From the NCBI GenBank assembly GCA_052387815.1, contig JBQTIU010000024.1:3028-67027 (forward strand): 64,000 nt of DNA. Direction: 5' to 3'. The DNA comes from Pseudomonadota bacterium. GTDB taxonomy: Bacteria > Pseudomonadota > Alphaproteobacteria > CACIAM-22H2. The notes below the pieces were generated by a model. The model searched no databases and had not been told where the DNA came from. It worked only from the letters and a program-made list of their open reading frames with translations. A program made the translations under genes and the position numbers. Below are positions 13,503 through 64,000 of the stretch, piece by piece (the first letter of the stretch is position 1; each line of letters starts with the position of its first letter).

Positions 13503-15431
13503 TCAGTCGGCCGCGCGCGCAGGTTCGCCCGCCGGGGCGGCGGCGCGGAACTCGGGCACCAGCCGTTGCAGCACGGCGCGGGTCGCCGGCTCGTCGCCGG
13601 AGCGCGCGCTCGCTTCGAGCTCGTCGAGCGCGCGGGCGATGAGGGCGTAATCGGCGGTGCGCGGGCTCGCCAACAAGACGCCCTTGACCGCCGTCGGTTG
13701 CAGCGCTTCGGCGGCGTGGAACAGCTCCTCTTTCAGCTTCTCGCCGGGTCGCAGCCCCGTGAACACGATGCCGATGTCGCGATCGGGCCGCAAGCCCGCG
13801 AGCCGGATCATCTGCCGCGCGAGGTCGAGAATGCGGACCGGCTGGCCCATGTCGAGGACGAAGATACGGCCGCTCGATTGCGCCTCGCTGGCGCCGAGCG
13901 CCGAGGCCTGCAGGACGAGCTCGACCGCCTCGCGGACGGTCATGAAATAGCGCTCGACATCGGGATGGGTGACGGTGAGCGGCCCACCGGCGCCGAGCTG
14001 GCGCTGGAACAGCGGCACCACCGAGCCGGTCGAGCCCAGGACGTTGCCGAACCGCACGGTCACGAACCGGGTGCGCCCGCCATCCGCCGGCTGGGCGAGG
14101 CCGAGCGCCTGGCAGGTGTTCTCCGCCAAGCGCTTGGTGGCGCCCATGACGCTCGCCGGATTGACCGCCTTGTCGGTCGACACCAGCACCATCGCCGCCA
14201 CGCCCGCCGCCCGGCAGGCCTCGGCGACGTTGCGCGTGCCGAGGGTGTTGGTCAGCGCCCCCTCGCACGGGTTCGCCTCGACCATCGGCACGTGCTTGAG
14301 GGCGGCGGCGTGGAAGACCAGTTCGGGTCGCTCCTCGGCAAGGAGGGCGGCGATGCGCTCGCGGGCGCGGACATCGGCGAGGATGGCGCGGCGCGGGAAG
14401 GGCTTGCGCCGCTCGCCGAGTTCGAGATCGATCGCATAGAGGTTGAACTCCGAATTGTCGACGAGGACCATTCGCGCCGGGCCAAGTTCGGCCACCTGGC
14501 GCACGAGCTCGGCGCCGATCGTGCCGCCGGCGCCGGTGACCATGACTCGCCGTCCGGCGATCAACCGCTCCATGGCCGAGCGGTCGAGCACGGTCTGCGG
14601 CCGGCCGAGCAAGTCCTCGATGTCGATGGGCCGGACCTCGATCTTGTCGGCCGCGGCGGCGCGGAATTCGGTGAGCTGCGGCAGCCTGGCGACGCTGATC
14701 CCCAGGCGGTCGGCGGCCTCGACCAGGCGCCCGAGCGCCAGCCCGGCGATCTCGGACTTGGCGACGATCAGGCGCTGCGGGGTGAGGTTCCGCGCCGCCA
14801 AACGCTCGACCACCGCCGCAAGGTCGTCGAGCCCGCCCAGCACCTCGTGCCCGCCGAGCCGCCGCCCCACCTGGTAGCTGGCATCGTCGAGGATCCCGAC
14901 CACGCGGTACTCGGCGTAGTCCTTGTGGGCCATCGCCTGGATGAACATCTCGGCGTTGTCGCCCGCGCCGACCAACACCACCTTGACGCGGCGGTCGCGG
15001 CTCGGGTCGTAGGTCAGGTCGAAACGGCCGTCCTTGACCAGCCGGTAGATCACCCGGGGCGCCGACAGCAGGATGATCAGCGCCAGCCAGTTGATGACGA
15101 TCAGCGAGCGCGGCACCTCCTGGAGCCGGGTGACCAGGAACATGGCGGGGAGGAAAATCAGGATGATGAGCGTCACCGCCTGGGCGATCGTCACCAGGTC
15201 GTTGATCGAGGCGTAGCGCCACATGCCGCGGTAGAGGCCCATCCGCCACAGCACCGCCGCCGCAACCAAGGTGAATAGCCCGGTCCCGAGCACGATGAAT
15301 TCCTTGGGATAGGTGAAGACATCGCCGCCGACCCGCAAGTACATCGCCGCGACGAACGAGGCCGCCGCCATGGCAACGTCATGGGCAAAGGCGATGCGCG
15401 GACGGGTCAGGCCGGGAAGGGCGAAGCGCAT
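13503..15431 (-). CDS. membrane-anchored UDP-GlcNAc 4,6-dehydratase (CapD/WbpM/PglF family)
   Basis: N-terminal transmembrane segments followed by two Rossmann motifs (VLVGAGDNA; VMVTGAGGTIGAEL), as in the PglF/WbpM polysaccharide-biosynthesis proteins. Confidence 0.85.
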   Translation of the reverse strand: MRFALPGLTRPRIAFAHDVAMAAASFVAAMYLRVGGDVFTYPKEFIVLGTGLFTLVAAAVLWRMGLYRGMWRYASINDLVTIAQAVTLIILIFLPAMFLVTRLQEVPRSLIVINWLALIILLSAPRVIYRLVKDGRFDLTYDPSRDRRVKVVLVGAGDNAEMFIQAMAHKDYAEYRVVGILDDASYQVGRRLGGHEVLGGLDDLAAVVERLAARNLTPQRLIVAKSEIAGLALGRLVEAADRLGISVARLPQLTEFRAAAADKIEVRPIDIEDLLGRPQTVLDRSAMERLIAGRRVMVTGAGGTIGAELVRQVAELGPARMVLVDNSEFNLYAIDLELGERRKPFPRRAILADVRARERIAALLAEERPELVFHAAALKHVPMVEANPCEGALTNTLGTRNVAEACRAAGVAAMVLVSTDKAVNPASVMGATKRLAENTCQALGLAQPADGGRTRFVTVRFGNVLGSTGSVVPLFQRQLGAGGPLTVTHPDVERYFMTVREAVELVLQASALGASEAQSSGRIFVLDMGQPVRILDLARQMIRLAGLRPDRDIGIVFTGLRPGEKLKEELFHAAEALQPTAVKGVLLASPRTADYALIARALDELEASARSGDEPATRAVLQRLVPEFRAAAPAGEPARAAD

Positions 15432-15453
15432 GGCTGGGTCGGTCTTGACACGA

Positions 15454-16971
15454 CTACGCGAGCCCCGCCTGCCGCGCCAGCATTCGGGCGCAGTGCAGGC
15501 GCTCGATCACGCCGCAGATGTAGTCGATCTCGGCATCCGTCAGGCTCAGCGCGGAGGGCAGAGACAGGCCGTTCGCCGACAGATACGTGGCGGCCGGCAT
15601 GGCGCGGTTGCCGGCATGGGCCAGGTAGGGCGGCATGGCGTGGAGCGGATAGAACAGCGGCCGGGATTCGATGCCGGCCTTCTCCAGCCGGGCCATGAAC
15701 TCATCGCGCGAGATGCCGAGGCGCCGCATGTCGCAGATGATCGAAAACGCCCAGAAGCTGTTGACGAGGCCCTCGATCTCGGCCGGAAGGACCAGTCCCT
15801 CGATCGCCCGCATCCCATTGCGATAGCGCCCGGCGATGCGAAGCTTGGTCGCCAGCAGGCGGTCGAACGCTTCGATCTGGGCGCAGCCGATCGCCGCCTG
15901 CAGGTTGGTCAGCCGGTAATTGTAGCCGATTTCGGTGTGCCAGTAGCGCCGCTTCGGGTCCATCCCGTGGTCGCGCAAGATCCGCGCCCGCTCGGCCGCG
16001 GCCCCATCGCGGAACACAGCCATGCCACCCTCGCCGGTGGTGAGCAGCTTGTTCGAGAAGAAGCTGAATGTCCCGGCCTGCCCGATCGACCCGCAGGCGC
16101 GGCCGCGGTGGGACGAGCCCACCGCCTCGGCCGCGTCCTCGATGACCAGCAGCCGGTGTCGGAGGGCGAGCGCCATGATCGCGTCCATGTCGGCGGGCTG
16201 GCCGTAGAGGTGGACTGGAACGATCGCCCGGGTGCGCGCCGACAGCGCCCCCGCGACGGAAGCGGGATCGATGTTCCAGGTGCCGGGGTCGACATCGACG
16301 ATGATCGGCGTGGCGCCGGCATGGATGACGGTGTTGATCGTGGCCGCGAAGGTGAGGTCGGGGACGATGACCTCGTCGCCCGGCCCGATGCCGAGCGCCA
16401 CCAACGCCAGGTGCAGCGCCGCCGTGCCGTTGGCGACCGCCACCGCGTGCGGGGCCCCGATGAGATTGGCGAAATCGGCCTCGAAGCGGCGCACAAACGC
16501 GCCTTGCGAGGAGATCCAGTTGGTCGCCAGGCACTCGTTGACGTATTTGCTTTCGTTGCCGGTGAGCACCGGCTCGGCCACCGGGATGCGCCGGCGCCGC
16601 GCGGGCGAGATCACATCGATGGGGCGGCGCTCATCGTCGATCAGCGGCACGACCGCGCCCGATCCGTTGATCGTGCGCGCGATGGCGGCCGGCCCGGCAG
16701 CTTCCGGCAGGGCCTCGGGCTCGCGCTGCATGGCGTCCTCGACCGGGGCGGCGAGCGATCCGCCCTGGGCGAGCCAATGGGCAATGCCGCGCGCATCGAG
16801 CCGTCCCGCGAGTCGACCCGCGCCATCGACCGCGAAAACGAGCCCGAGCCCGTTGCGATCGCCGCACTTGAGCGCCGTCAAGACCGGATCGGCGACATTG
16901 ACCAGGACGCCGTCAATCGACATGGATGGAGAACCCTGCAATGCACCCAACCGGCTCATTTCAGCAAACAT
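15454..16971 (-). CDS. CBS-domain-fused DegT/DnrJ/EryC1 family sugar aminotransferase (PglE-like)
   Basis: About 120 aa of N-terminal CBS-pair sequence, then the PLP aminotransferase core (VANGTAALHLAL...FSFFSNKLLTTGEGG), with the lysine in the SNK context. Confidence 0.8.
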   Translation of the reverse strand: MFAEMSRLGALQGSPSMSIDGVLVNVADPVLTALKCGDRNGLGLVFAVDGAGRLAGRLDARGIAHWLAQGGSLAAPVEDAMQREPEALPEAAGPAAIARTINGSGAVVPLIDDERRPIDVISPARRRRIPVAEPVLTGNESKYVNECLATNWISSQGAFVRRFEADFANLIGAPHAVAVANGTAALHLALVALGIGPGDEVIVPDLTFAATINTVIHAGATPIIVDVDPGTWNIDPASVAGALSARTRAIVPVHLYGQPADMDAIMALALRHRLLVIEDAAEAVGSSHRGRACGSIGQAGTFSFFSNKLLTTGEGGMAVFRDGAAAERARILRDHGMDPKRRYWHTEIGYNYRLTNLQAAIGCAQIEAFDRLLATKLRIAGRYRNGMRAIEGLVLPAEIEGLVNSFWAFSIICDMRRLGISRDEFMARLEKAGIESRPLFYPLHAMPPYLAHAGNRAMPAATYLSANGLSLPSALSLTDAEIDYICGVIERLHCARMLARQAGLA

Positions 16972-16980: not shown

Positions 16981-17215
16981 TAGGGGCGGATCTCACGACC
17001 CGTCCGGGGGGGTCATAAACCCGCCCCTACGGAACCCGACGATATTGTCCTTGTAGGGGCCGGTTTGAAACCGGCCCGTTTCGAACCCGTCCGGGCGGGT
17101 CATAACCCCGCCCCTACGGAACCCGACGATATTGCCCTTGTAGGGGCCGGTTTGAAACCGGCCCGTTTCGAACCCCGTCCGGGCGGGTCATAAACCCGCC
17201 CCTACGGTCGCCGAT
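16981..17215. repeat. REP-like palindromic repeat array: 2 full units (87-88 bp) plus one partial unit (50 bp)
   Basis: Tandem units span 17031-17117 and 17118-17205, with a partial unit at 16981-17030. Each unit contains the nested inverted repeats GTAGGGGC..GCCCCTAC and GGCCGGTTT-G-AAACCGGCC. The array is intergenic within the minus-strand operon. Confidence 0.6.
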
Positions 17216-19380
17216 CCGGGGTCGAGGGGGAGCATGATCCGCTGGCCGGTTTCGAGCGCCTCGATGACGGCGATGGTGGCGAGGCTGGAGGCCACGAGCT
17301 CGCGTTCCTCGACCGGCGGCGGGCCGCCCGCGCGCACCACGGCGACGAACGCCTCGAGCTCGGCGCGGTGCCCCTTGTCCTGGCCGAGGCGGTCGCGCAT
17401 GGGCCGCGCCTTGCCGTCGACCACTAGCGTGAACTCGCGGAAATCCTCGATCCGCACCACGGTCCCGGCGGCATAGGCCTCGATCTGCTCCTTGGGGAAG
17501 GCCGGGTCGCCGAGCCCGGTATAGGCGATGGTGGCGAGGCTGCCGTCGGCGAACGCCAGCATCGCCGCGACGTCGTCGGCCGCTTCCGGGTCGCGCGCGG
17601 CCGAGGCCTGGACGGATGCGATCGGCGCGCCGGCGAGGAAAGCGGCGAGGTCGACGAAATGGCAGACTTCGCCGAGGATCCGGCCCTCGGCGGCGATCCA
17701 GCCTTCGCGGGGGCGGGGGCGGGGGCCGGCATTGATCCTGAGCACGAGAAAGCGCGGCCCCGGCCGCTTGGCGATGAGCTCGCGCGCCCGTATTGCCATC
17801 GGCGCGAAGCGGCGGTTGAAGCCAACCGTGAAAAAACCCGCCGAGGTCTCGCGCGCGCCGACCACGGCATTGAGCTCCTGGCGAGTGAGCGCCAGCGGCT
17901 TTTCGACGAACACCGCCTTGCCGCGCTCGAGCGCGCGCACGACCAGGTCGGCATGGCTCGAATGCGGCGTGGCGATGATCACCGCGTCGATCTCGGGGTC
18001 ATCGAACACGGCTCCGGCCTCGGTCGCGGCGGCGGCGAAGCCGAAGCGCGCGCGCGCGCTCTCGGCGCTCATGCCGCGGGTCGCGACCACGGTCTTGAGG
18101 GTGACGCCGGAAAGGTCCTTGAGCGCCGGCAGCAGCACCGCGCGGGCGAACGCGCCGGCGCCGATCAAGCCCACGACGCAACTCCCGCGCGCCTTCGGGG
18201 ACGACGAGCGCGCGCGCAACACCGGCACGCGCGCCGGCGGCGCCGCGGGCGGATAGTTGAGGACGACGCCCAGCGAGGGCTCGGGACGGTCGACGACCAG
18301 GGCATAGGCTTGCTCAGCCCGCGCGAAATCGAAGCGATGGCTGATCAGCGGTGCGACCTCGAGGCGCGCGCGGCGCCCTTTCGACATCAATCGGAGGCAG
18401 AGCGCGAGGTTGTCGGTCTCGGTCCAGCGCACGAAGCCGACCGGGTACTTGACGCCGCCCGCCTCGAACTCGTCGTCGTAGCGGCCGGGGCCGTAAGAGC
18501 GCGAGACGACGATCGACAGCTCCTTTTTCATGAACTCGCCGAACGGGAACTCGGTGCCGACCTTGCCCACGAGGCTGATGCGGGCGCGGTCGCGCGCGAT
18601 CTCGGCGGCGAGGACCATGGGCTCGTTGCCCTCGCTGGCGGCCGCGATCAGCACGCCGTCGGCGCCGCGCCCCTCGCTCGAGGCCATCACTGCGGACGCG
18701 ACCCCGCCTGCCGAGAGATCGAGCGCGAGCGCGGCGCCGAGCCGCTTGGCGAGCGCCAGGCGCCCCGGATCGGTATCGATCGCCACCACCTCGACCCCCG
18801 ACAGCGCCAAGAGCTGGACGGCGATCTGGCCGACCAAGCCGACGCCGAGGACGGCGACGACGTCGCCCAGGCAGGGCGCGAGGTTACGCACGCCGTGCAG
18901 CGCGATGGCGGCAACCGTGCCGAAGGCCGCCTCCTCGTCGCCGACGTCGTCGGGGATCGGCGCCGCGAGAGAGCGGGGGACGAGGTTGAACCCGGCGTGG
19001 TTGGCGGCGCCCGCGCCGGCGATGGCGACCCGCTGGCCGACCCGATACACGCCTTCCAGCCCGGCGCCCAGCTCGACGATCTCGCCGGCCGCCGAGTAGC
19101 CCAGCGCCATCGGCTCGTCGAGCCGCGCGCGCACCGCCCGCAAGGTCGCAAACAGGCCGTCGCGCCGCGCCTTGGCCAGCAACTTTTGCATCAGGTCCGG
19201 GCGCGATCGCGCCTTCACGGCCAGGTTCCGGCGCGCGAAATCGACCGCCATGCGCTCGGTGCCGGCGGAGATCAGCGAGGCGGCGGTGCGCACCAACAGG
19301 TGCTGCGCGCGCGCGCCGGGCGCCGGCACCTCGACGAGCGCGAGCTTGCCGGTGCGGGTGCTGTAAATGACTTGCTTCAT
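17188..19380 (-). CDS. two-domain oxidoreductase: zinc-type MDR alcohol dehydrogenase fused to a Gfo/Idh/MocA dehydrogenase
   Basis: The N-terminal half is MDR-like (MKQVIYST...GAGLVGQIAVQL). The C-terminal half is Gfo/Idh/MocA-like (VVGLIGAGAFARAVLLPAL...EKPLAL). The start at ATG 19380 makes an ATGA overlap with the upstream gene's stop, and an AAGGAG sits upstream of a nearby alternative ATG. Confidence 0.75.
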   Translation of the reverse strand: MKQVIYSTRTGKLALVEVPAPGARAQHLLVRTAASLISAGTERMAVDFARRNLAVKARSRPDLMQKLLAKARRDGLFATLRAVRARLDEPMALGYSAAGEIVELGAGLEGVYRVGQRVAIAGAGAANHAGFNLVPRSLAAPIPDDVGDEEAAFGTVAAIALHGVRNLAPCLGDVVAVLGVGLVGQIAVQLLALSGVEVVAIDTDPGRLALAKRLGAALALDLSAGGVASAVMASSEGRGADGVLIAAASEGNEPMVLAAEIARDRARISLVGKVGTEFPFGEFMKKELSIVVSRSYGPGRYDDEFEAGGVKYPVGFVRWTETDNLALCLRLMSKGRRARLEVAPLISHRFDFARAEQAYALVVDRPEPSLGVVLNYPPAAPPARVPVLRARSSSPKARGSCVVGLIGAGAFARAVLLPALKDLSGVTLKTVVATRGMSAESARARFGFAAAATEAGAVFDDPEIDAVIIATPHSSHADLVVRALERGKAVFVEKPLALTRQELNAVVGARETSAGFFTVGFNRRFAPMAIRARELIAKRPGPRFLVLRINAGPRPRPREGWIAAEGRILGEVCHFVDLAAFLAGAPIASVQASAARDPEAADDVAAMLAFADGSLATIAYTGLGDPAFPKEQIEAYAAGTVVRIEDFREFTLVVDGKARPMRDRLGQDKGHRAELEAFVAVVRAGGPPPVEERELVASSLATIAVIEALETGQRIMLPLDPGSATVGAGL

Positions 19381-20333
19381 CGCAAGGACCTGTTCTCCTT
19401 GTACCATGCGGCCGTGGCATCGAGGCCCTCGCGAACGGAAAAGGGCGGGGTCCAGGCGAGCGTGGCGCACCAGGAGCTCGGGTCGAGGGCGAGCGAGCCG
19501 GTCAGGCGCCAGGCCGCCTCCCCGCGCCCGGCGATGGCGCCGGCGAGGCGCAGCGATGCTGCGGGCGCGGCGAACAGGCGGGCCGGGCGGCCGAGCGCCT
19601 CGCGCAGGCGCTTGACGAGCTCGGACGTCGACAGGTCCTCGCCGTCGCCGATCAGCCAGGTCCTTCCCACCGCTTTGTCCGTGCCGAGCGAGCGGGCGAG
19701 CGCCGAGACGAGGTTGCCGAGATAAAGCAGGCTGCGACGGTTGTCGATGCCGCCCAGCGGCAGCGGCCAAGGGGTGTCGCAGAGCCGCAGCAGGTCGAGG
19801 AAATTCGCCCCCACCCCCGGCCCATAGACGAGCGGCGGGCGGACCACCGTCACCGCCAAGCCGGTGCGCCCGGAGATCTCGGCGAGCGCCCGCTCGGCCT
19901 CCCATTTCGAGACCGCGTAAGGACCCTGCGGGGCCGGCTTATCGTCGTCGCCAAAGGGGCGCGGGCTTTCCTCGCCCAGCACTTTGGCGGTCGAGACGAA
20001 GACGAACCGCTTGACGCCGCACGCCGCCGCCGAATCGGCGAGGCGCCTGGTGCCGGCGGCGTTGACGCGGCGGAATTCGACCAGCGGATCGGCGGCCGCA
20101 TCGCGCCCGATATGAACGCGGGCGGCGAGATGGATGACCGCCCACACGTTGTCGAGCCCCACCCGCCATTCGGTGTCGGGGCCGATCTCGCCGGCGACGA
20201 ACGGCCGGCCCGCCAGAGTCTCGGCGGGGCTGGCGCGCGTCGCGGCGACCACCTCGTAGCCGTCGGCCGCCAATTGGCGGCACAGCGCGCGGCCGATGAA
20301 GCCGTTGGCGCCGGTGACGAGGACGCGGCTCAG
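19377..20333 (-). CDS. NAD-dependent epimerase/dehydratase (SDR family)
   Basis: VLVTGANGFIGRAL Rossmann motif and a YxxxK region (YAVSK). There is no in-frame ATG; the reading frame opens at a CTG that forms a CTGA overlap with the upstream GT4 stop. See finding. Confidence 0.65.
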   Translation of the reverse strand: MSRVLVTGANGFIGRALCRQLAADGYEVVAATRASPAETLAGRPFVAGEIGPDTEWRVGLDNVWAVIHLAARVHIGRDAAADPLVEFRRVNAAGTRRLADSAAACGVKRFVFVSTAKVLGEESPRPFGDDDKPAPQGPYAVSKWEAERALAEISGRTGLAVTVVRPPLVYGPGVGANFLDLLRLCDTPWPLPLGGIDNRRSLLYLGNLVSALARSLGTDKAVGRTWLIGDGEDLSTSELVKRLREALGRPARLFAAPAASLRLAGAIAGRGEAAWRLTGSLALDPSSWCATLAWTPPFSVREGLDATAAWYKENRSLR

Positions 20334-29348: not shown

Positions 29349-29419
29349 GGCAAAGCCCCCGGCCCGGCGCCAGACGGCGCCGGGCGGCAGGCGCCGGGCC
29401 TTCTCGAGAGTGGCGCGGA

Positions 29420-55949: not shown

Positions 55950-55951
55950 GC

Positions 55952-56401
55952 TCAGCCGTGCCTTACCGACCAGTCATAGGGGATGTCGTTCTTGAACGGG
56001 TCGATATAGATGAGCTCCTCGCGATCGTAGGGCAGGGTCGCGCAGTTGGCGAGGATCGCCATCTTGTCGCCGTACGCCTTGTAACCGTTGGTGATGCCGG
56101 GCGGGATCTGGACCAGGCAGTAATTGTGCTCGCCGATGAACAGCTCGACGAGCGCGTTGCGGGTGGGCGAAGCCTCGCGTCCGTCGAACAGCACCAGCTT
56201 GATCATGCCGGCGATGCAGCAGTTGTTGAGCGTCATCCGCTTGTGGATGTGCCAGGCCTTCACCACCCCGGGATAGCCGCACGAGAAATAGATCTCCCCG
56301 AACTCGAGGAAGTGCGGGTCGGTGCGCTTGAGCATGTGCATGACCATGCCCCGCTCGTCGGGGATCCTGGGCAAGGGAATGACCTTCACGCCGTCGATCA
56401 T
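55952..56401 (-). CDS. RmlC-like cupin epimerase (GDP-4-keto-6-deoxyheptose 3,5-epimerase-like)
   Basis: 149-aa cupin (DERGMV...GEHNYCLVQIPPGITNGY). ATGA overlap with the dehydratase gene. Confidence 0.65.
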   Translation of the reverse strand: MIDGVKVIPLPRIPDERGMVMHMLKRTDPHFLEFGEIYFSCGYPGVVKAWHIHKRMTLNNCCIAGMIKLVLFDGREASPTRNALVELFIGEHNYCLVQIPPGITNGYKAYGDKMAILANCATLPYDREELIYIDPFKNDIPYDWSVRHG

Positions 56402-57411
56402 GCTTGCTCTCGTTGGCGGGGAATGGCGCCGGCGCGCATTTGCTGGCGCCAGTAGTCGAGCGTGTCGGAGAGAATCTGCTCGAACGGGATGTTCGGCACC
56501 CAGCCGGTCGCCTGCCGGAACTTGGCGGTGTCGGCGATCAGCCGCGGCACGTTGGTCGGCCGTACGTAGCGCGGGTCGGTCTCGTAGGCGATGCCCTTGA
56601 CGCTCGACATGGCGATCAGCCGCTCGAGGGCCTGGCGAAAGGTATGGATGCTGGCCTCGTCCTCCGAGCCGATCAGATAGAGCTCGCCCGGCGCGCATTT
56701 CTCGACCGCCAGCCAATAGGCTTCGACGATGTCGCGGACGTGCGTGAAATTGCGCCGGTCGTCGAGATGGCCGACCTTGAGCATCTTGTCCTGCCGGCCG
56801 GCCTCGACGCGGGCGATCTGGTAGGCGTACCAGGGAATGCCGAACGCCTTGTCGCGGCGCGGCCCCTCGTGGTTGAAGGCGCGCGTGCGGATGACGTTGA
56901 GGCCGTAGGAGCGGAAGTAGACGTAGCCGATCAGGTCCTGCGCGATCTTGGTCACGGCGTAGGGGTTGACGGGGCGCAGCACGGTGGACTCGAGGATCGG
57001 GATCTCGTGCTCCAGGATGTCGCCGTATTCCTCGCCCGAGCCGGGGATCAGCAGGCGCGCCTTCGAGCCCGCCTGGCGCAACGCCTCGAGGAGGTTGACC
57101 GTGCCGTTGTAGTTGACCGCCATGTAGCGGTGCGGGTTGTTCCACGACGGGCTGACGAAGCTCTCGGCGGCGAAATGCAGCACCATTTCGGGTGCCGCCT
57201 CGTCGAGCGCGGCGCGGGTGGCCACCGGGTCGGTCAAGTCGCAATCGACCCAGCGGATCCGATCCTCGATGTGGCGCACGTTGTCCAGGCGCGACAGATG
57301 CCAGCGCTTGGTGCCCCAAAGTTCCGCCGCGCCGCCGGCGGACAACAGATAGTCGGCGGCGTGCGAGCCGACGAAGCCGGTGATGCCGGTGATCAGGACG
57401 CGTCGAGCCAC
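56398..57411 (-). CDS. GDP-mannose / GDP-heptose 4,6-dehydratase family
   Basis: RVLITGITGFVGSHAADYLL and YAVTK motifs, resembling GMD/DmhA. No in-frame ATG; the predicted GTG start at 57411 has GGAG 7 nt upstream. Confidence 0.75.
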   Translation of the reverse strand: MARRVLITGITGFVGSHAADYLLSAGGAAELWGTKRWHLSRLDNVRHIEDRIRWVDCDLTDPVATRAALDEAAPEMVLHFAAESFVSPSWNNPHRYMAVNYNGTVNLLEALRQAGSKARLLIPGSGEEYGDILEHEIPILESTVLRPVNPYAVTKIAQDLIGYVYFRSYGLNVIRTRAFNHEGPRRDKAFGIPWYAYQIARVEAGRQDKMLKVGHLDDRRNFTHVRDIVEAYWLAVEKCAPGELYLIGSEDEASIHTFRQALERLIAMSSVKGIAYETDPRYVRPTNVPRLIADTAKFRQATGWVPNIPFEQILSDTLDYWRQQMRAGAIPRQREQA

Positions 57412-58646
57412 GGGCGCTCCTGCGGGTGCGCGGGGTCGGCGATCAGGCGAGCGACGATGTCGAGGAGACCCGTTCCCTCCTCGACCATGGCGAAGGGAGC
57501 GCCGGCGCGCCGGGCGGCCTCGCCGTCGCGTGGGTCGTCGCCCACGAACAGGGTGCGCGAGAGGTCGAGCGCGAAGTCGCGTTGCGCCTGGAACAGCATG
57601 CCGGGCGCGGGCTTGCGGCACCAGCAGCCCTCGTCCCAGTCGTGCGGGCAGTGGTAGACGGCATCGATGCGGCCGCCGGCCGCCGCGGCTTCCCTTAGCA
57701 TCCGCTCGTGGATCGCCTCGAGGTCGGCAAGGGTCATGAAAGAGCGCGCGATCCCGGACTGGTTGGTCACCACGATCACGCGATAACCGGACTCGGCGAG
57801 CAGCCGCAGCGCGTCGAGCGCGCCGGGCAGCCAGCGCCAATCCCGCCACGAGGTCACGTACCGGCCGCCGCGCGCCTTGCGATTGAGGACACCGTCGCGA
57901 TCGACCAGGATCGTCTTGGGGCGAGCGAGGAAGCGCCCGGTCTCGTCCAGCCGTTCGATCGTCCCGACGCTGTAATAGCGATGGTCGGTCTCGAAGGCGC
58001 GGAGCTGCCGGGCCGCGACCAGCCGCGGATAGACCGCTGCCTCGAAGGAGGGATTGAGATCCTCGGGCAGGAGATCGAGCACCGCGCGCTCGGCGATCAG
58101 GAAGCCGATATCGACTCCCGCGAGCCCGGTCGCGGCCCGCTGTTTGTCGTAGAGGTCGACGAACCCGTCGGCGCCGACGCTGAGGTTGCCGCGGGTGTAG
58201 CCGTCGCGGTTGCGGTAGACCGCGACCTGCGCCATCGCGCCGCCGGCGCGATAGGCGTCCCACATGTCGGCGAACGGCATCGGCCAGTAATTATCGCAAT
58301 ACGCCAGGAGGAACCGCGGCTCGATCATCGGGGCCGCGAGCTTGAGGCGCCGGCCGGTGTCGTCCTCGACGCCGCTGAGCGCGTACTCGATCTCGACCCC
58401 GAGGGGTCGTCCGTCCCCGAAATAGCCGCTGATCGCCTCGGGCAGATAGCCGAGGAGCAAGAGGAAGCGCTCGAAACCCTGGTCGCGCAGCATTTCGATC
58501 AGGTACTCGAGGAAGGGCCGGCCGTGGAATTCGATCATCGGCTTGGGGCGCGTCTCGGTGAGCGGGCGCAGGCGCATCCCCCGCCCGCCGGCGAGGATGA
58601 CCGCCTGGCGCGGCCGTTCGAACGCGACGCCGGTGCTGTTGCTCAC
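57393..58646 (-). CDS. bifunctional D-glycero-alpha-D-manno-heptose-1-phosphate guanylyltransferase (HddC-like) and D,D-heptose 1,7-bisphosphate phosphatase (GmhB-like)
   Basis: N-terminal AVILAGGRGMRLRPLTETRPKPM nucleotidyltransferase domain. C-terminal HAD domain (ILVDRDGVLN...CWCRKP..GDDPRD). Confidence 0.8.
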   Translation of the reverse strand: MSNSTGVAFERPRQAVILAGGRGMRLRPLTETRPKPMIEFHGRPFLEYLIEMLRDQGFERFLLLLGYLPEAISGYFGDGRPLGVEIEYALSGVEDDTGRRLKLAAPMIEPRFLLAYCDNYWPMPFADMWDAYRAGGAMAQVAVYRNRDGYTRGNLSVGADGFVDLYDKQRAATGLAGVDIGFLIAERAVLDLLPEDLNPSFEAAVYPRLVAARQLRAFETDHRYYSVGTIERLDETGRFLARPKTILVDRDGVLNRKARGGRYVTSWRDWRWLPGALDALRLLAESGYRVIVVTNQSGIARSFMTLADLEAIHERMLREAAAAGGRIDAVYHCPHDWDEGCWCRKPAPGMLFQAQRDFALDLSRTLFVGDDPRDGEAARRAGAPFAMVEEGTGLLDIVARLIADPAHPQERPWLDAS

Positions 58647-59242
58647 CGACCGTCAACGCCCTTGGTTCGTCGCTGGCCAAGGTCGAGCACCGCATGGCAG
58701 AGGGCAAGGTGGGACACTTCGACGAAGCCGTATTCCGCCGCGCCGACATGGAAGTTGAGGTCGCCCATGCGGCGCAACGGATTGTCCGCCGAAAAACCGC
58801 TGAGCGTGGCGACGAAGCAGTCCTTGGCCCGCGCCGCCTCGACCGCGCGCAGGATATTGGCCGAGCGCCCCGAGCTCGAAATGGCGATCAGCATGTCGCC
58901 CGGGCGGGCATGAAATTCGATCTGCTTGGCGAACACGCTCTCGTAGCCGAGATCGTTGCCAAGACAGGTCAGCGCCGCGCCGTCGTTGAAGGCAAGCGCG
59001 CGCAGGCCGCCGTTCTTCGAGTAGTCGATGGCGAGATGGCTGGCGATGCCGGCGCTGCCGCCGTTGCCTACGAACATCAGCTTGTTGCCCCGGCCATGCG
59101 CCGTCCGCGCCGCGCCGGCGAAATGGGAAAAAGCCACCTCGATGCCGATCGGCCGGCCCGCGCCGTCGCTCGCCGCGGTCTCCTCGAGGCAGCGATGCAG
59201 GGTCGCGAAATAGTCGGTGATGCGATCGAGCGGGATATCCAT
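58643..59242 (-). CDS. gmhA: SIS-domain phosphoheptose isomerase
   Basis: FVGNGGSAGIASH and SSSGRS motifs. The start is ATG 59242; an upstream in-frame TTG at 59281 is the alternative. Confidence 0.8.
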   Translation of the reverse strand: MDIPLDRITDYFATLHRCLEETAASDGAGRPIGIEVAFSHFAGAARTAHGRGNKLMFVGNGGSAGIASHLAIDYSKNGGLRALAFNDGAALTCLGNDLGYESVFAKQIEFHARPGDMLIAISSSGRSANILRAVEAARAKDCFVATLSGFSADNPLRRMGDLNFHVGAAEYGFVEVSHLALCHAVLDLGQRRTKGVDGR

Positions 59243-59327
59243 GTCGCGGTCCAAGGGTTCGAGGGGGGTCCTGTCAGGCAAAGCGCTGCGTGACCCGGCC
59301 GAGATATTGCGCGCAGTCGAAGATGTC
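59112..59327. repeat. direct repeat copy 1 (216 bp, about 97% identical to 60341-60556): gmhA 5' end plus GT2 3' end junction
   Basis: Base-by-base comparison shows about 6 mismatches over 216 bp. Homology continues at protein level into the GT2-like remnant. Confidence 0.7.
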
Positions 59328-59474: not shown

Positions 59475-59506
59475 CATTCCGGTCTTCGCTGTCGTCCGCC
59501 GCCGGC

Positions 59507-60277
59507 TCAGGCGGCCGGGTCGTCCTCGATATAGGCGATGAAGGACTGGCCCCACCACCCCACCGACAGGTGGGGCGCGAAGCGAAAGCGGCTGCGGCGG
59601 CAAAATTCGCGGAAGGCCCGCGCGACGCCCTTGGCCGGCGAGCCCTTGTAGCCGGCGAACAGGTCGTCCATGTAAAGCACCGAGCCCTCCTGCAAGAGCG
59701 GCTCGATGAACTTGAACACCGGCACGGCCGACTCGTAGAGATCGCAATCGATAGTTGCGAGCGCGACCTTGTTCCCCTGGTCCAGGAAGCGGCGCTGCAA
59801 TTCGGGGGTCAGGCTATCGGCATAGAAGCCCGCGATCGGGTGGACGCGTTCCGACCAGATGCCGTGCGCCTGCACCATCCTCATGAAGTCCTCGACCGAG
59901 GTGGCCAGCGCGCCGCGTCGCCAAATTTCGTTGACCGGATTCGAGGTCGGCTGCGGCAGCCCTTCGAAGCTGTCGAAGGCGAAGAACTTCATCTCGGAAA
60001 AGTTGTAGCGGCGCGCCTCGGTCAAGGCCATGCGGAATGTCCGGCAGCGGTGGCAGCCATATTCGTGATAATCGCCAGTGATCCGATTCTCGCGGAGGAA
60101 GTCGAAGACTCGGCGGAAGAACAGGTACTTCTCGGTTTGCCGACTCATATGGGTATCAGCGATCTCCTGCTCGCGCCCCCAGTCCCGGAGCTCCGGCCCC
60201 GTCGCGAGCCGCACCCAGGGCTCGCCGTCCTGGGCCTCGATCCGCACCGGGGGCAAGTCGCGCCTCGGCTCGTTCAT
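59507..60277 (-). CDS. TylF/MycF-family (macrocin O-methyltransferase-like) sugar O-methyltransferase
   Basis: TylF-family pattern (YHEYGCHRCRTF...ATIDCDLYES...LYMDD) and 256 aa. Confidence 0.8.
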   Translation of the reverse strand: MNEPRRDLPPVRIEAQDGEPWVRLATGPELRDWGREQEIADTHMSRQTEKYLFFRRVFDFLRENRITGDYHEYGCHRCRTFRMALTEARRYNFSEMKFFAFDSFEGLPQPTSNPVNEIWRRGALATSVEDFMRMVQAHGIWSERVHPIAGFYADSLTPELQRRFLDQGNKVALATIDCDLYESAVPVFKFIEPLLQEGSVLYMDDLFAGYKGSPAKGVARAFREFCRRSRFRFAPHLSVGWWGQSFIAYIEDDPAA

Positions 60278-60471: not shown

Positions 60472-60556
60472 GTCGCGGTCCAAGGGTTCGAGGGGGGTCC
60501 TGTCAGGCAAAGCGCTGCGTGACCCGGCCGAGATATTGCGCGCAGTCGAAGATGTC
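60341..60556. repeat. direct repeat copy 2 (216 bp)
   Basis: See copy 1 at 59112..59327. Confidence 0.7.
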
Positions 60557-61717
60557 CTGCAAACCCAGCTTTTGGGCCTCCACCCACAGCCTGTCGGACG
60601 GACGCCGAAAGCGAAAGTGCAGCGCGTCGACGAGGCGCCGCGGCGCCCCGTCAAGCGCCCGGTTGATCGCCCGCGCCGCCGATCGCAGGGCCCCACGCGC
60701 CGGCGTCCCGGCCGCGACCCCCGCCGCCACCGCAGCCTGGATTTCGGCCGGCGCCTCGCCGAGCGCCGCGTGCCAGGCCGCCATTTCGGCGGCAACGTCG
60801 CGGCCCATCCCCTGCATCTCGCGGATGCCGCGCCAGCACGCGAGGAAATAATTGGCAAGGTCGAGGCGGTACGACCCCAGCCGTTCCGGCATGGCCGCCT
60901 GCAGGCGCAGAATCGTGTCCGCGCCGTCGGAGGGGAAAACGCTCATCAGCTTGATCGGCGCGCGCTCGATCCGCATGCCCGCCGTCATGCGAGTAAAGGT
61001 CCGGGGATCGGCGACATGGCCGCCCGAGGAATCGGGCGGGGCGCCGAGGACGGTGAGCGGCAAGTCGAGGCGCAGATGCTTGTGGCTGAAGGCGAGCGCG
61101 GCGGCGGCGGCCGAGGTCATGGGATCGATCGGCAGGAACAGCGCGCCGTCCAGGCGCTCGCGGATGCGCGCGATGAGCTCTCGCCGGTAGACGGCAAAGG
61201 GAAACAACGGCAGCTTGCGTTTCACGGCACCGGCCTTGCCGGTCCCCGAGGCGAACATCTCGGCCAGGAGCTCGGAAGCCTCGTAGACGAAACGCTGGCC
61301 GGAAAACGCGTTGTAACCGAAACGGATCGCGCCGCCGTTCCGCTGGCCGGGGCCTTCCATGTACCCCGCATGCGTCCACGAGACCGTGTCGATGTCGGCA
61401 TGGTCGCTAAGCTCGCGGTCGAGGATGGACAGCAGGTTCGGCGCGATCGCGTCATCTTCGCACAACAACACGTGGGCCTCGCCCCCGGCATGGGCGAACG
61501 CGAAGTTCCAGTGGTCGATGAGCGTCAGGTATTCGGACGGTCGCACGTAGCGGACCCGCGGGTCGGCGAAGCCGCGCACGAGGGCCTCGCAGCCCTCGTC
61601 GCTGTTGTCGGAGACCACCACCTCGAAGTCCTGGAAGCTCTGGGCGAGCGCGGAGCGAATCGCGCACGGCAACAGGCGCGGTCGCGTGGTCGTGATGACG
61701 ATCGAGAACTTAGCCAT
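60503..61717 (-). CDS. GT2-family glycosyltransferase
   Basis: MAKFSIVITTTRPRLLPCAIRSALAQSFQDFEVVVSDNSDEGC N-terminus with a DxD region, as in GT-A/GT2. Confidence 0.8.
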   Translation of the reverse strand: MAKFSIVITTTRPRLLPCAIRSALAQSFQDFEVVVSDNSDEGCEALVRGFADPRVRYVRPSEYLTLIDHWNFAFAHAGGEAHVLLCEDDAIAPNLLSILDRELSDHADIDTVSWTHAGYMEGPGQRNGGAIRFGYNAFSGQRFVYEASELLAEMFASGTGKAGAVKRKLPLFPFAVYRRELIARIRERLDGALFLPIDPMTSAAAAALAFSHKHLRLDLPLTVLGAPPDSSGGHVADPRTFTRMTAGMRIERAPIKLMSVFPSDGADTILRLQAAMPERLGSYRLDLANYFLACWRGIREMQGMGRDVAAEMAAWHAALGEAPAEIQAAVAAGVAAGTPARGALRSAARAINRALDGAPRRLVDALHFRFRRPSDRLWVEAQKLGLQDIFDCAQYLGRVTQRFA

Positions 61718-61753: not shown

Positions 61754-63097
61754 TCATCGGATGACAGGCTCGCCGGTCGTCGCGACCGCGCGGGCCTCGG
61801 CCCTGGCGGGGTCTGCGAGCCGCAGCCAGGCTGGCGAGATGCGCGATTCGGCGAGGGCGTACCAGAGGTGGTCGTGCGGCCTGACAATCTGCTCGATGGG
61901 CACGCCGTAGGGAATATCGGTCGCGATGCCGTCGAGGAAATCGCGGACCGCCGCCTCGATCTCGGCAGCGGCGTTCGACCGTACCGCGTATCCGTCGTGG
62001 CGGTACGACTGCGAGAGGTGCCTGAACGCGCGACGCGGGTCCACGGCCTGGCCCGCGGGGTCCTCCCAAAACTTGAAGAAGACGGTCGCGCGATAGCGCG
62101 TCTGGAAATAGGGGAAATTGTTGACGATCAGGGTCGGGATGCCGTTCACCCCGGGAAGCCAGGAGCCGCCGCCCGACTCGCCGACGAACAGATCCGCCTC
62201 CGTAGCAGCGAACAGCGAGAACAGAAATGGATCCTGTCCGAGGATGCGCGCATCGGCGAGCCAGCCCTCCGTCTCGCGCGCAAACTCGTCGGGAAGGTAT
62301 CGGTCCCCGATCATCAGGCATTGGTAGCCCGCATGAATGAGCGAACGGATCGCCGGCATCCACTCGATCACCACGGAACCCGACCGGCTGCCGGACTCCA
62401 ATTCCTGCTCCGATCCCTTCCATCGCAGATAAAGGCAGCAGAGCTTTCGCGCCTTGCGCTCCGACCGCGCGACCAGCCGGTCGAGCGCCACGCGGATCGG
62501 CTCGACGAGCGGCGCGGGGAGCCGTACCGGCGGGGCGGCCCGAGTACTGAGGAGGCGGAAATAGGCATGGACCGTATGCACCGAACGCGACTCCCGGGTC
62601 GGGTCGGCCTCGCCGTCGCCGCCGAAGCCGACGGACCGCAGCATCGCGAAGTGCAAATCCATCGCCGAGGCAAGGACGATCTTGTTCGGCCACAGCTTTC
62701 GTATCGCCGGAGCCAACAAGCCGCACAGCCATTCCTGAACGCGATATGGCACGCTCAGCGGCGGCCACCGGCCGCTGCGCCCAAGCTTGAAGCCGAAGGG
62801 CAGGAGATGGAGGCGCGGCACGGTCCACAACCTTGGCAGATACCAGTTCTGCACCTCCGGACTCGCGGCGAACAGGAGCGTGACCCGACGCCCCGGGTAC
62901 AGCCGCCGCAAGGCGTCAGGAAACACTATGAGATGCCCGAACCCGCCGCCTTCATTGATGACCACCACTTCCGCGCTCCGTATGTCGCGCCAGGCCCGGC
63001 ATACGCCGTACGCGACCCGCAGCAGGCTCACGGGAAGGACCAGCCACCGCGCCACCCCGTTCAGGCGCCAGCCGACAGCATGCAGAATCCGTCTCAT
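61754..63097 (-). CDS. hypothetical protein, possibly a GT-B (GT9 heptosyltransferase-like) glycosyltransferase
   Basis: 447 aa from ATG 63097. It has a weak GT9-like pattern (VVVINEGGGFGHLIVFPDALRRL ... FVGESGGGSWLPGVNGIPTLIV). The overlapping ORF 61710..62828 was rejected. Confidence 0.35.
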   Translation of the reverse strand: MRRILHAVGWRLNGVARWLVLPVSLLRVAYGVCRAWRDIRSAEVVVINEGGGFGHLIVFPDALRRLYPGRRVTLLFAASPEVQNWYLPRLWTVPRLHLLPFGFKLGRSGRWPPLSVPYRVQEWLCGLLAPAIRKLWPNKIVLASAMDLHFAMLRSVGFGGDGEADPTRESRSVHTVHAYFRLLSTRAAPPVRLPAPLVEPIRVALDRLVARSERKARKLCCLYLRWKGSEQELESGSRSGSVVIEWMPAIRSLIHAGYQCLMIGDRYLPDEFARETEGWLADARILGQDPFLFSLFAATEADLFVGESGGGSWLPGVNGIPTLIVNNFPYFQTRYRATVFFKFWEDPAGQAVDPRRAFRHLSQSYRHDGYAVRSNAAAEIEAAVRDFLDGIATDIPYGVPIEQIVRPHDHLWYALAESRISPAWLRLADPARAEARAVATTGEPVIR

Positions 63098-63099
63098 TG

Positions 63100-63249: not shown

Positions 63250-63338
63250 CACCTCGACCGAACCCTGGAACCGGTCGCGATGGAGCGGCTGGTCCGACAA
63301 ATACTTGTCGCAGAACCGGACGGTCTTGTCGGCTAAGG

Positions 63339-64000
63339 CTAGATTTCCCGCGGCGGGCGTTCCGCCGCATCGCCCCAGTGCTCGCCCGCCTTGTAGCAGC
63401 CCTGGCAGACCTTGGGGATGCGGCCGTCGAGATGGGCCTGGCGGAACGCCTCGTAGGCGGGGCCGAACCACGTTTTGGCGAAGCCGTCCGCGGCGCTGCC
63501 GATCTCCATCACGTCTGGGCTGCCGACATAGCAGCACGGCACGGTGCGCAGGTCCGACGACACGTAGGCCCGCTCGAACGGCCACGGGCACAGCGTGTTG
63601 AGTGACTCGATGCGGTACTTCTCGGTCACGTTCCAGAACCGGACCAGAAGGCCGAGCGCTGCCCCGCGGTCGACGAGCCTCAAGAGAGAATCCGGATCGA
63701 GCCGGTCGTCGACGGTGACCGCCTTGTTGCGCTCGCTCCAGCTCTCGACCCCAAAGTCGCTCAAGTTGAGCGAGAACACGAGCTGCGGGAAGCCGAGCTC
63801 CGCACCGAGGTCGACGAGGTTTTCGAGTTGCCGTACGTTGTCGTGCTGCACCACGACCCACATCTTGGTCCGCAGCCGGTCGACTCGGCGGGCGTAGTCG
63901 TTGACCGTCCGGCAGTTGGCAACGACGCGCCCGAACACCGAGCCGCGGCGGATCTTCTCGAAGGTTGCCTTGTCGGCGCCGTCGATCGAGATCTGCAGCT
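63339..64000 (-). CDS. radical SAM protein with C-terminal SPASM domain (5' end beyond the window)
   Basis: Cys-rich SPASM tail (CPWPF...VPCCYVGSPD...CQGCYKAGEHW). The ORF continues upstream to the window edge (...LQISIDGADKATFEKIRRGSVF). Confidence 0.55.
   Translation of the reverse strand, partial: LQISIDGADKATFEKIRRGSVFGRVVANCRTVNDYARRVDRLRTKMWVVVQHDNVRQLENLVDLGAELGFPQLVFSLNLSDFGVESWSERNKAVTVDDRLDPDSLLRLVDRGAALGLLVRFWNVTEKYRIESLNTLCPWPFERAYVSSDLRTVPCCYVGSPDVMEIGSAADGFAKTWFGPAYEAFRQAHLDGRIPKVCQGCYKAGEHWGDAAERPPREI

Follow-up and report, generated by a model that had tools for sequence, protein, structure and literature searches.

The window analyzed here is a stretch of 64,000 nucleotides (nt) on contig JBQTIU010000024.1 (assembly GCA_052387815.1), and its host is an uncultured soil alphaproteobacterium related to Rhodospirillales/Stellaceae. 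Positions 13,503 to 64,000 hold a polysaccharide locus of about 45 coding regions (Table 1), 44 of which are encoded on the minus strand and a single one on the plus strand. This agrees with a preliminary description of the DNA, which reported a minus-strand polysaccharide array of more than 50 kb. Though unusual in its size and in its wealth of methyltransferases, the locus is of an ordinary kind, being built from cassettes that are common in other bacteria.

Because the G+C content of the window is about 69%, raw lists of open reading frames (ORFs) are crowded with spurious frames. Genes were called from the GC content of third codon positions (GC3) and from frame plots, and start codons were refined with independent gene calls on three Logan contigs (run SRR34758880), which are 99.97-99.98% identical to the window. 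Every called gene was scanned against Pfam and NCBIfam. These searches recovered most of the earlier gene assignments, among them the GT2 and GT4 glycosyltransferases, the Wzy_C-domain protein and the AsnB-type amidotransferase; a pathway to UDP-4-amino-4,6-dideoxy-N-acetylhexosamine (UDP-4-amino-4,6-dideoxy-HexNAc) was not supported. Three ORFs with a poor GC3 signal and no matches (22,295-23,221, 59,274-59,747 and 63,100-63,861) are probably not genes.

A conserved backbone with nonulosonate genes

The backbone of the locus consists of the nonulosonate genes NeuB, NeuC and NeuA, a KpsC-like protein of 564 residues, GT4 glycosyltransferases, an AsnB-type amidotransferase, methyltransferases and a heparinase II/III-like protein. 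Related loci were found in soil metagenomes and in Rhodospirillales and Stellaceae metagenome genomes (L003-L005, L008 and L009), where stretches of about 20 kb were read. They share the gene order NeuB-NeuC-(variable)-NeuA-558/560-residue protein-(methyltransferase)-GT4-GT-(methyltransferase)-AsnB-methyltransferase-heparinase-like-GT4-GT4. Their backbone proteins are syntenic with those of the window and 46-81% identical to them. The AsnB-type protein scored 480 bits with TIGR01536, over the cut-off of 267, and is 64-65% identical to its orthologues. The variable slots of the relatives contain an acyltransferase, sulfate-activation genes, or an extra AsnB or C-methyltransferase. It had been proposed that the combination of genes is unusual for a single locus. 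This was overstated, as the backbone recurs in related genomes, and the dehydrogenase-oxidoreductase fusion (ADH-GFO), the heptose fusion and the KpsC-like transferase described below each have hundreds to thousands of relatives. The 20-kb stretches read in the relatives contain neither the CDP-sugar cassette of the window nor any of its genes upstream of NeuB (FkbM methyltransferase, E1 pair and heptose block). The window's downstream genes (a second GT4 set, Wzy_C, ADH-GFO, aminotransferase and PglF-type dehydratase) fell outside the stretches that could be read.

Among the nonulosonate enzymes, NeuC scored 260 bits with the UDP-GlcNAc epimerase domain of human GNE in the PDB and 210 bits with a LegG-type N,N'-diacetylbacillosamine (diNAcBac) epimerase. 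NeuB matched Neisseria meningitidis NeuB with 157 bits, and its PDB matches do not separate Neu-type from Leg-type synthases. Nonulosonate gene clusters have also been documented in Leptospira (PMC3438082).

The gene for the 564-residue protein overlaps the stop codon of NeuA in the window and follows NeuA in all relatives examined, the order being the same in four of four loci. The protein has no sequence match in Pfam, NCBIfam or the PDB, and the profile of its family has no match in the PDB. More than 1,200 members of this family were detected, some of which match PF05159 (Capsule_synth); its closest relatives (65-71% identical) were found in metagenomes of soil and in metagenome genomes of Rhodospirillales and Stellaceae. 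An AlphaFold2 model made from 23 family members (predicted local distance difference test score, pLDDT, 89.8; predicted template-modeling score, pTM, 0.90) has a GT-B fold. Against KpsC structures, the best target-normalized template-modeling (TM) scores were 0.49-0.52, the query-normalized scores about 0.3 and the Foldseek probability 1.0. Based on fold and gene context, the protein is a probable nonulosonate transferase. It resembles the beta-3-deoxy-D-manno-octulosonic acid (Kdo) transferases KpsC/KpsS (PF05159) in its GT-B fold, in its best TM being to KpsC, and in the translational coupling of its gene to that of a CMP-ulosonate synthetase. It differs from them in having no Pfam match and neither a sequence nor a profile match to KpsC in the PDB, in exceeding a single KpsC domain by about 240 residues, and in its presumed donor, which would be CMP-nonulosonate instead of CMP-Kdo. 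A similar arrangement occurs in Tannerella forsythia, where a candidate nonulosonate transferase is encoded just downstream of the CMP-nonulosonate biosynthesis locus; the transferases of that species, however, are 442-445 residues long with a DXD motif and do not belong to the KpsC-like family (PMC5420450).

Between NeuA and NeuC lies an acyltransferase gene with a frameshift that was absent from the preliminary description. Residues 6-58 of its orthologue align in frame -2 (42,834-42,676) and residues 54-368 in frame -1 (42,691-41,792), with the junction at a short T-run (GTTTTCTG). The sequence is identical in the Logan contig L001, and the gene is therefore either a real pseudogene or the product of a shared read-level error. 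A 421-residue ORF at 41,789-43,054 was rejected as an intact acyltransferase, because roughly the first 125 of its codons are out of frame and overlap NeuC. In L008 and L009, sulfate-activation genes (PAPS_reduct and a fused GTPase/APS-kinase) lie between NeuC and NeuA (6,529-9,241 and 6,578-9,278, respectively), at or beside the position that the acyltransferase has in the window. The glycan family may thus include sulfated variants.

A small nucleotidyltransferase-fold gene stands between the GT4-like gene and a methyltransferase gene of the backbone and is absent from the related loci. Its product is probably not a glycan enzyme.

Table 1. Features of the polysaccharide locus, in order of position in the window. 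E, E-value; bits, model score.
Feature	Position	Strand	Basis
PglF/WbpM-type membrane-anchored nucleotide-sugar 4,6-dehydratase	13503..15431	-	Polysacc_synt_2 E 6e-105 and CoA_binding_3; last locus gene
DegT-family sugar 4-aminotransferase, perosamine-synthase/LegC-like	15454..16971	-	DegT E 2e-120
Zinc-type (MDR) dehydrogenase-Gfo/Idh/MocA oxidoreductase fusion (ADH-GFO)	17188..19380	-	ADH_zinc_N and GFO_IDH_MocA
SDR epimerase/reductase	19377..20273	-	Epimerase E 4e-26
GT4 glycosyltransferase, WcaI-like	20330..21577	-	Pfam GT4; WcaI family 174 bits, under 276 cut-off
FkbM methyltransferase	21893/21974..22672	+	Methyltransf_21 E 4e-15; fkbM_fam 93 bits, over 37.7 cut-off
Wzy_C-domain membrane protein, Wzy/ExoQ-like polymerase or ligase	22890..24098	-	Wzy_C E 4e-10; 10 hydrophobic segments
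Methyltransferase-GT4 fusion	24098..26074	-	Methyltransf_11 (79-171) and Glycos_transf_1 (463-620)
GT4 glycosyltransferase (backbone)	26071..27381	-	Glyco_trans_1_4; orthologues in L008, L009 54-56% identical
Heparinase II/III-like protein (HepP-like)	27378..29423	-	Hepar_II_III_N and _C; orthologues in L008, L009 49-50% identical
S-adenosylmethionine (SAM) methyltransferase (backbone)	29420..30253	-	Methyltransf_23 E 4e-22
Glutamine-hydrolysing AsnB-type amidotransferase (backbone)	30240..32141	-	Asn_synthase and GATase_7
SAM methyltransferase (backbone)	32205..32969	-	Methyltransf_11 E 7e-23; orthologues 61-65% identical
Small nucleotidyltransferase-fold protein	32998..33333	-	weak Polbeta/NTP_transf_2
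Divergent GT4-like transferase (backbone)	33383..34696	-	weak Glyco_transf_4/Glyco_trans_1_4; orthologues 46-51% identical
321-residue protein	34710..35675	-	joined to CDP-sugar genes by ATGA overlap
SDR epimerase/reductase of CDP-sugar cassette	35672..36634	-	Epimerase E 3e-39; ATGA-coupled
CDP-glucose 4,6-dehydratase (RfbG)	36631..37740	-	TIGR02622 424 bits, over 278 cut-off
Glucose-1-phosphate cytidylyltransferase (RfbF)	37701..38471	-	TIGR02623 366 bits, over 300 cut-off
SAM methyltransferase	38468..39403	-	Methyltransf_23 E 3e-14; L008 orthologue 50% identical
564-residue GT-B-fold protein, KpsC-like	39393..41087	-	fold and gene context; probable nonulosonate transferase
CMP-ulosonate synthetase (NeuA-like)	41080..41796	-	CTP_transf_3 E 3e-18; best model PseF 146 bits, under 206 cut-off
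Acyl_transf_3 O-acyltransferase, frameshifted	41789..42850	-	Acyl_transf_3; break near 42,680
Hydrolysing UDP-GlcNAc 2-epimerase (NeuC)	42900..44051	-	TIGR03568 392 bits, over 236 cut-off
Nonulosonate synthase (NeuB)	44048..45040	-	NeuB and SAF; TIGR03569 348 bits, under 400 cut-off
FkbM methyltransferase	45050..46087	-	Methyltransf_21 E 6e-19; FkbM domain over curated cut-off
2-oxo-acid dehydrogenase E1 beta-like subunit, 325 residues	46122..47099	-	PDB 1um9_B E 9e-12; no Pfam match
Thiamine-diphosphate E1 alpha-like subunit	47096..48022	-	E1_dh E 1e-29
RmlC-like 3,5-epimerase	48009..48557	-	dTDP_sugar_isom E 1e-37
SDR epimerase/reductase	48631..49548	-	Epimerase E 5e-36
SDR epimerase/reductase	49545..50468	-	Epimerase E 3e-12
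CmcI/rhamnosyl-O-methyltransferase-family enzyme	50653..51417	-	RMNT_CmcI E 2e-66; 58% GC patch
B12-binding radical-SAM enzyme, probable C- or O-methylase	51563..53470	-	B12-binding and Radical_SAM
Nucleotide-sugar C-methyltransferase	53707..54930	-	Methyltransf_13 and Methyltransf_14 E 2e-53
GHMP kinase, HddA-like heptose-7-phosphate kinase	54948..55949	-	GHMP domains; HddA best model, 159 bits vs 600 cut-off
Short cupin epimerase (RmlC-like)	55952..56401	-	dTDP_sugar_isom E 6e-11
GDP-sugar 4,6-dehydratase-like SDR	56398..57411	-	GDP_Man_Dehyd E 2e-73; gmd 135 bits, under 415 cut-off
HddC-like sugar-1-phosphate nucleotidyltransferase-GmhB phosphatase fusion	57393..58646	-	NTP_transferase and HAD; GmhB 163 bits vs 178 cut-off
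Sedoheptulose-7-phosphate isomerase-like protein (GmhA)	58643..59281	-	SIS_2; gmhA models best, under cut-offs
TylF-family O-methyltransferase	59507..60277	-	TylF E 4e-11
GT2 glycosyltransferase	60503..61717	-	Glycos_transf_2 E 6e-12
Possible glycosyltransferase (TIGR04372-like)	61754..63097	-	TIGR04372 40 bits, under 45 cut-off
SPASM/twitch radical-SAM protein, C-terminal part	63339..64000	-	SPASM E 6e-7; twitch-domain radical-SAM model

The aminotransferase and the type of nonulosonate

The last genes of the array encode the PglF-type dehydratase, which has three hydrophobic segments at its N-terminus, and the sole DegT-family protein of the locus. The best NCBIfam model for this aminotransferase is the GDP-sugar LegC family (358 bits, under the cut-off of 420), and with the RfbH model it scored 187 bits (cut-off 423). 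In the PDB, it matched the GDP-perosamine synthase of Caulobacter (3bn1) with 386 bits, compared to 168 bits for a PglE-type chain (1o61) and 110 bits for PseC. An N-terminal extension of about 110 residues (16,600-16,971) has coding-type GC3 and no match in Pfam or NCBIfam; visual inspection suggests that it may be akin to nucleotide-binding regulatory domains.

The preliminary description listed four nucleotide-sugar pathways. Support was found for those leading to CDP-6-deoxyhexose, CMP-nonulosonate and a GDP-heptose. The fourth, to UDP-4-amino-4,6-dideoxy-HexNAc, is poorly supported, since the aminotransferase is perosamine-synthase-like and no sugar N-acetyltransferase of the PglD/LegH type was found in the window. 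The only hexapeptide protein of the window (7,860-8,411) was ruled out as the missing enzyme, being gamma-carbonic-anhydrase/CaiE/PaaY-like. Judging from its sequence, the aminotransferase may instead act on a GDP-4-keto-6-deoxy sugar, a predicted product of the locus.

A possible, if doubtful, alternative is that the PglF-type dehydratase and the aminotransferase feed NeuC, NeuB and NeuA. The product would then be a 5,7-diamino nonulosonate of the legionaminic-acid type instead of a sugar of the N-acetylneuraminic acid (Neu5Ac) type, and the UDP-4-amino and nonulosonate pathways would be one. The LegC family as best model of the aminotransferase fits such a route, as does the match of NeuC to hydrolysing diNAcBac 2-epimerases (210 bits). 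Moreover, AsnB-type enzymes, methyltransferases and an Acyl_transf_3 O-acetyltransferase are generally known to accompany legionaminic acid in Legionella and Campylobacter. However, 25 kb lie between the two gene sets and the window lacks the N-acetyltransferase that the route would need. Because NeuC is nearer to the epimerase domain of GNE (260 bits), and because three related loci carry NeuB-NeuC-NeuA with no dehydratase or aminotransferase within 10 kb, a Neu5Ac-type sugar is favored.

The CDP-sugar and ADH-GFO cassettes

Within the backbone, between the divergent GT4-like gene and a methyltransferase gene, lies a CDP-sugar cassette. As in the CDP-glucose branch of the Salmonella/Yersinia rfb loci, RfbF and RfbG are present, both over their equivalog cut-offs. 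Unlike in those loci, the 3-deoxygenation enzymes RfbH (E1) and RfbI (E3) were not found, no E3-type gene being detected, and the cassette contains in addition a 321-residue protein that has no match in Pfam, NCBIfam or the PDB. Given the missing RfbH/RfbI, the predicted product is a 6-deoxyhexose and not a 3,6-dideoxyhexose.

For the ADH-GFO fusion further downstream, more than 531 full-length relatives were detected, which are 41-61% identical to it. These usually adjoin an AsnB-like gene or two as well as a WcaI-like GT4, the latter in 20 of 34 other loci. ADH-GFO, AsnB and the WcaI-like GT4 form a conserved cassette, the chemistry of which seems to be uncharacterized. The fusion of about 720 residues occurs very widely in metagenomes of soil, peat and marine origin (loci L010-L089); no close syntenic relative of the window was among the 80 loci obtained in a metagenome scan with it.

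A similar fusion is known from Pseudomonas aeruginosa PA14, where the MDR-Gfo fusion ZbdP (PA14_23420) and the heparinase-like HepP (PA14_23430) form an operon (PMC5732420). This operon was assigned to O-antigen biosynthesis as a predicted transcription unit (PMC3406104). Compared by domain layout, not by sequence, the PA14 region and the locus share an MDR-Gfo fusion of about 715-730 residues with matching domain positions, together with a heparinase II/III-like protein. In PA14, zbdP and hepP are 8 bp apart, whereas here both genes lie 8 kb apart with six genes between them and are in reversed order; the PA14 region is also much smaller and lacks nonulosonate, CDP-sugar and heptose modules. 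We take the PA14 O-antigen region to hold an AsnB-type gene as well and to end with the PglF-type wbpM.

Predicted branched-sugar, heptose and methylation genes

Upstream of NeuB, the first genes after an FkbM methyltransferase encode a pair of E1 subunits, coupled by an ATGA overlap, which the preliminary description had missed. In antibiotic pathways, E1 alpha/beta-type pairs (AviB1/AviB2) attach two-carbon branches to keto-sugars. The pair is followed by an RmlC-like epimerase and two SDR epimerase/reductases, then by the CmcI-type enzyme, the B12-radical-SAM enzyme (for which every NCBIfam model was far under its cut-off) and the C-methyltransferase.

Next to these lies a packed block in which five activities of heptose metabolism were recognized by domain: GmhA, HddA, GmhB, a nucleotidyltransferase and a 4,6-dehydratase. 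More than 3,000 homologues of the HddC-GmhB fusion were found across phyla, the nearest of which lies in the same GmhA-fusion-dehydratase-kinase core. For its nucleotidyltransferase half, HddC is only a lower-ranking model, and for the dehydratase the dTDP-glucose dehydratase model scores slightly above gmd. As the matches to the HddA, HddC and GmhA models are under their cut-offs, GDP is proposed as the heptose nucleotide by inference only. The same enzyme set occurs in the capsule loci of Campylobacter jejuni, where GDP-6-deoxy-heptoses are made by GmhA, HddA, GmhB, a guanylyltransferase, a 4,6-dehydratase, a cupin C3/C5 epimerase and C4 reductases (PMC10680097). In contrast to C. jejuni, the nucleotidyltransferase and the phosphatase are fused here, GmhB is encoded within the locus, and the C-methyltransferase and B12-radical-SAM genes adjoin the heptose block.

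The right-hand end of the window holds the TylF-family methyltransferase, the GT2 glycosyltransferase and the TIGR04372-like protein, which has no Pfam or PDB match; a PDB sequence search with a 538-residue protein also gave no match. In total, ten methyltransferase-type genes were counted: two FkbM, four Methyltransf_11/23 (one fused to a GT4), CmcI, TylF, the Methyltransf_13/14 C-methyltransferase and the B12-radical-SAM enzyme. The earlier figure of about ten methyltransferases is thereby matched by nine SAM methyltransferases and one B12-radical-SAM enzyme. The transferases number seven (four GT4, one GT2, one weak TIGR04372-like and one KpsC-like).

Gene spacing and transcription units

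It had been claimed that nearly all junctions between genes are short overlaps and that the array consists of one or two very long polycistronic units. The 43 same-strand junctions include 12 four-base overlaps (ATGA, GTGA or TTGA), a one-base overlap (TGATG) and nine longer overlaps. Overlaps therefore make up about half of the junctions, 13 of them being of the claimed form. The remainder are gaps of at most 40 nt (11), 41-100 nt (four) and more than 100 nt (six). The genes are closely packed, which is also true of many high-GC operons, and four-base overlaps occur among the flanking housekeeping genes as well.

The six long gaps separate GT2 from TylF (225 nt), the C-methyltransferase from the B12-radical-SAM gene (236 nt), the latter from CmcI (145 nt), CmcI from the SDR gene (184 nt), ADH-GFO from the aminotransferase (216 nt with a start at 16,971 or 264 nt with a start at 16,923) and Wzy_C from the WcaI-like GT4 (1,312 nt). 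A seventh is added if the doubtful 67-residue ORF at 59,274-59,477 is not a gene. The largest gap encloses the plus-strand FkbM gene, for which the Logan gene call gave 259 residues on the opposite strand. This gene sits in a 1.3-kb break of the minus-strand array (21,577-22,890) and has a weaker codon-position GC signal than its neighbors. Since six gaps exceed 100 nt and one of them holds a plus-strand gene, one or two operons are unlikely, and the locus probably comprises several transcription units. A consensus promoter and terminator scan of 13-33 kb found sites no more frequently than in shuffled sequence.

The spacing also bears on whether two or more separate glycan loci lie side by side. 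In that case, the region from about 13.5 to 45 kb would make a nonulosonate-containing, O-antigen-like polymer and that from 45 to 64 kb a heptose or branched-sugar glycan with its own GT2 and TIGR04372-like transferases. The gaps of more than 100 nt are concentrated at 50-60 kb, where the GC content is also lower (50-54 kb), and the GT2 and the possible glycosyltransferase at 60.5-63.1 kb accompany the heptose block. The relatives point the same way: they have the backbone, each of them differs upstream of NeuB and no heptose gene was seen there, while the heptose core cassette is found independently in many phyla. We nevertheless consider such a division unlikely. Orientation and tight spacing are kept across the join at 45 kb, where FkbM and NeuB are 9 nt apart, and the window holds a single polymerase/ligase-type gene and no second export set. 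The right-hand block moreover runs past the end of the window.

Borders and flanking genes

The next gene downstream of the locus is purH (11,723-13,309), which makes the left border sound. A 10-bp GC-rich hairpin at 13,407-13,429 may be the terminator of the locus; it lies in the 193 nt that separate the stop codon of the final locus gene from the purH start. Beyond purH lie an AAA ATPase and a toxin-antitoxin pair of a HepT-like RNase and an MNT nucleotidyltransferase (9,591-10,134, minus strand), followed by housekeeping genes. No tRNA genes were found bordering the locus. A third FkbM-family methyltransferase (699-1,634, minus strand) adjoins a large gene for an NAD-specific glutamate dehydrogenase, 12 kb from the locus.

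The right border is outside the window, and the SPASM/twitch radical-SAM gene is truncated at 64,000. When this fragment was searched against contigs of species-representative genomes, the sole matches were a non-syntenic contig from Rhodospirillales and an unrelated one from Oscillospiraceae. The Logan contig that carries HddA spans only 5.4 kb.

Polymer assembly and export

Only three membrane proteins are encoded in the locus: the PglF-like protein (by its N-terminus), the Wzy_C protein and the acyltransferase. The closest relatives of the Wzy_C protein are at most 45% identical and carry the source names ExoQ or O-antigen ligase (annotation only). It diverges far faster than the neighboring genes, which is usual for Wzy polymerases, and the genomic context of one Stellaceae homologue was unrelated. 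The adjoining methyltransferase-GT4 fusion has an orthologue of 367 residues in L009 (20,547-21,650; Rhodospirillales), which aligns to the GT4 half only, so that the addition of the methyltransferase domain appears to be specific to a lineage.

The region is read here as a mosaic surface-glycan locus, likely for a lipopolysaccharide (LPS) O-antigen or a capsule/exopolysaccharide-type polymer made via a Wzy-type route (probability about 0.7). Several points weigh against this. No Wzx flippase or Wzz regulator is encoded within 13.5-64 kb (no Polysacc_synt or Wzz match), and the window contains no initiating phosphoglycosyltransferase of the WecA, WbaP or PglC type (no Bac_transf or Glycos_transf_4 match), no Wzm/Wzt or KpsM/KpsT ABC exporter and no WaaL-specific marker. 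With the methods used, the Wzy_C protein is not separable from a ligase or an O-oligosaccharyltransferase. An ABC-dependent route is possible, as a fused ABC transporter (ABC_membrane and ABC_tran) adjoins NeuB in one relative. Most heptose and NeuB/NeuA matches are under the NCBIfam equivalog cut-offs. The locus runs on past the window end at 64,000, and it is known from genes alone, its source being a metagenome-assembled genome. The absence of a flippase, an exporter, a chain-length regulator and an initiating transferase from the window is confirmed by the membrane-segment count, given only three membrane proteins, as well as by the family scans, in line with the earlier statement that Wzx, Wzz and an ABC exporter are missing; partial matches of the PglF-like protein to the WbaP model are confined to its N-terminal, non-catalytic region. 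Wzx and Wzz may be located outside the window.

The Wzy_C domain is common to Wzy, WaaL and PglL, and PglL/PilO O-oligosaccharyltransferases carry it as well. The locus could accordingly serve protein O-glycosylation, with the Wzy_C protein acting as a PglL-type oligosaccharyltransferase that places a methylated, nonulosonate-capped oligosaccharide on S-layer or surface proteins, as in Tannerella, Neisseria or Burkholderia. Seven transferases would suit an oligosaccharide as well as a repeat unit. The T. forsythia cluster is similar in make-up (PMC6120980, PMC5420450): it is a 27-kb polycistronic array of glycosyltransferases and three methyltransferases (PMC6120980). Both systems are long same-strand arrays that mix glycosyltransferases with methyltransferases and keep nonulosonate genes and a transferase together; they differ in size (27 kb compared to more than 50 kb), and that of T. 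forsythia is a Bacteroidota system with a protein-attached glycan. We regard this function as very unlikely for the locus, since neither a target protein nor a flippase is found in the window, the nearest Wzy_C relatives are named ExoQ or O-antigen ligase, and the ZbdP/HepP-like pair and a PglF/WbpM-type terminal gene are typical of O-antigen regions.

A probable mosaic surface-glycan locus

Under the preferred reading of a mosaic locus for a surface polymer, the backbone would make and transfer a sialic-acid-like nonulosonate and build an amidated, methylated repeat. Beside or within this backbone, the CDP-sugar module would convert CDP-glucose via CDP-4-keto-6-deoxyglucose to a 6-deoxyhexose. 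The E1 alpha/beta pair, together with the epimerase and reductases, could attach a two-carbon branch to a keto-sugar, and several O-methyltransferases would act as further cassettes. The data establish which families or domains the genes belong to, their order, the conservation of the backbone and the lack of export and initiation genes in the window. The use of particular substrates, the sugars on which the tailoring enzymes act, the formation of one glycan and its linkage to the lipid A-core are inferred.

Two regions of the locus have a reduced GC content compared to the 0.69 or so of the window, namely 0.58 at CmcI (50,653-51,417) and 0.60 at the acyltransferase (41,800-43,000). These dips fit assembly from separate cassettes and suggest that both genes are more recent acquisitions.

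It is rather improbable, in our view, that all modules contribute to one glycan, which would contain a nonulosonate along with a 6-deoxyheptose and/or a 6-deoxyhexose, be C-methylated by the TylC3-type and B12-radical-SAM enzymes and carry a two-carbon branch added by the E1 pair. To our knowledge, sugar tailoring by TylC3-type, B12-radical-SAM and E1 enzymes is known mainly from antibiotic deoxysugars. If one such glycan were made, a soil alphaproteobacterium would be using tailoring chemistry of the antibiotic type for a primary polymer of its cell envelope.

The current view of polysaccharide assembly is unchanged by the locus, whose value is that of a catalogue entry and a source of enzyme candidates. 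Noteworthy are its many methylating enzymes, the occurrence of the E1 pair and of radical-SAM genes among sugar genes, and the uncharacterized KpsC-like family. The 564-residue KpsC-like proteins, the ADH-GFO fusions and the radical-SAM and E1-type enzymes among nucleotide-sugar genes are candidate families that are abundant in metagenomes and poorly characterized. With its conserved backbone beside widespread sugar cassettes, the locus illustrates the diversification of surface glycans in an uncultured, Rhodospirillales-like lineage of soil bacteria.

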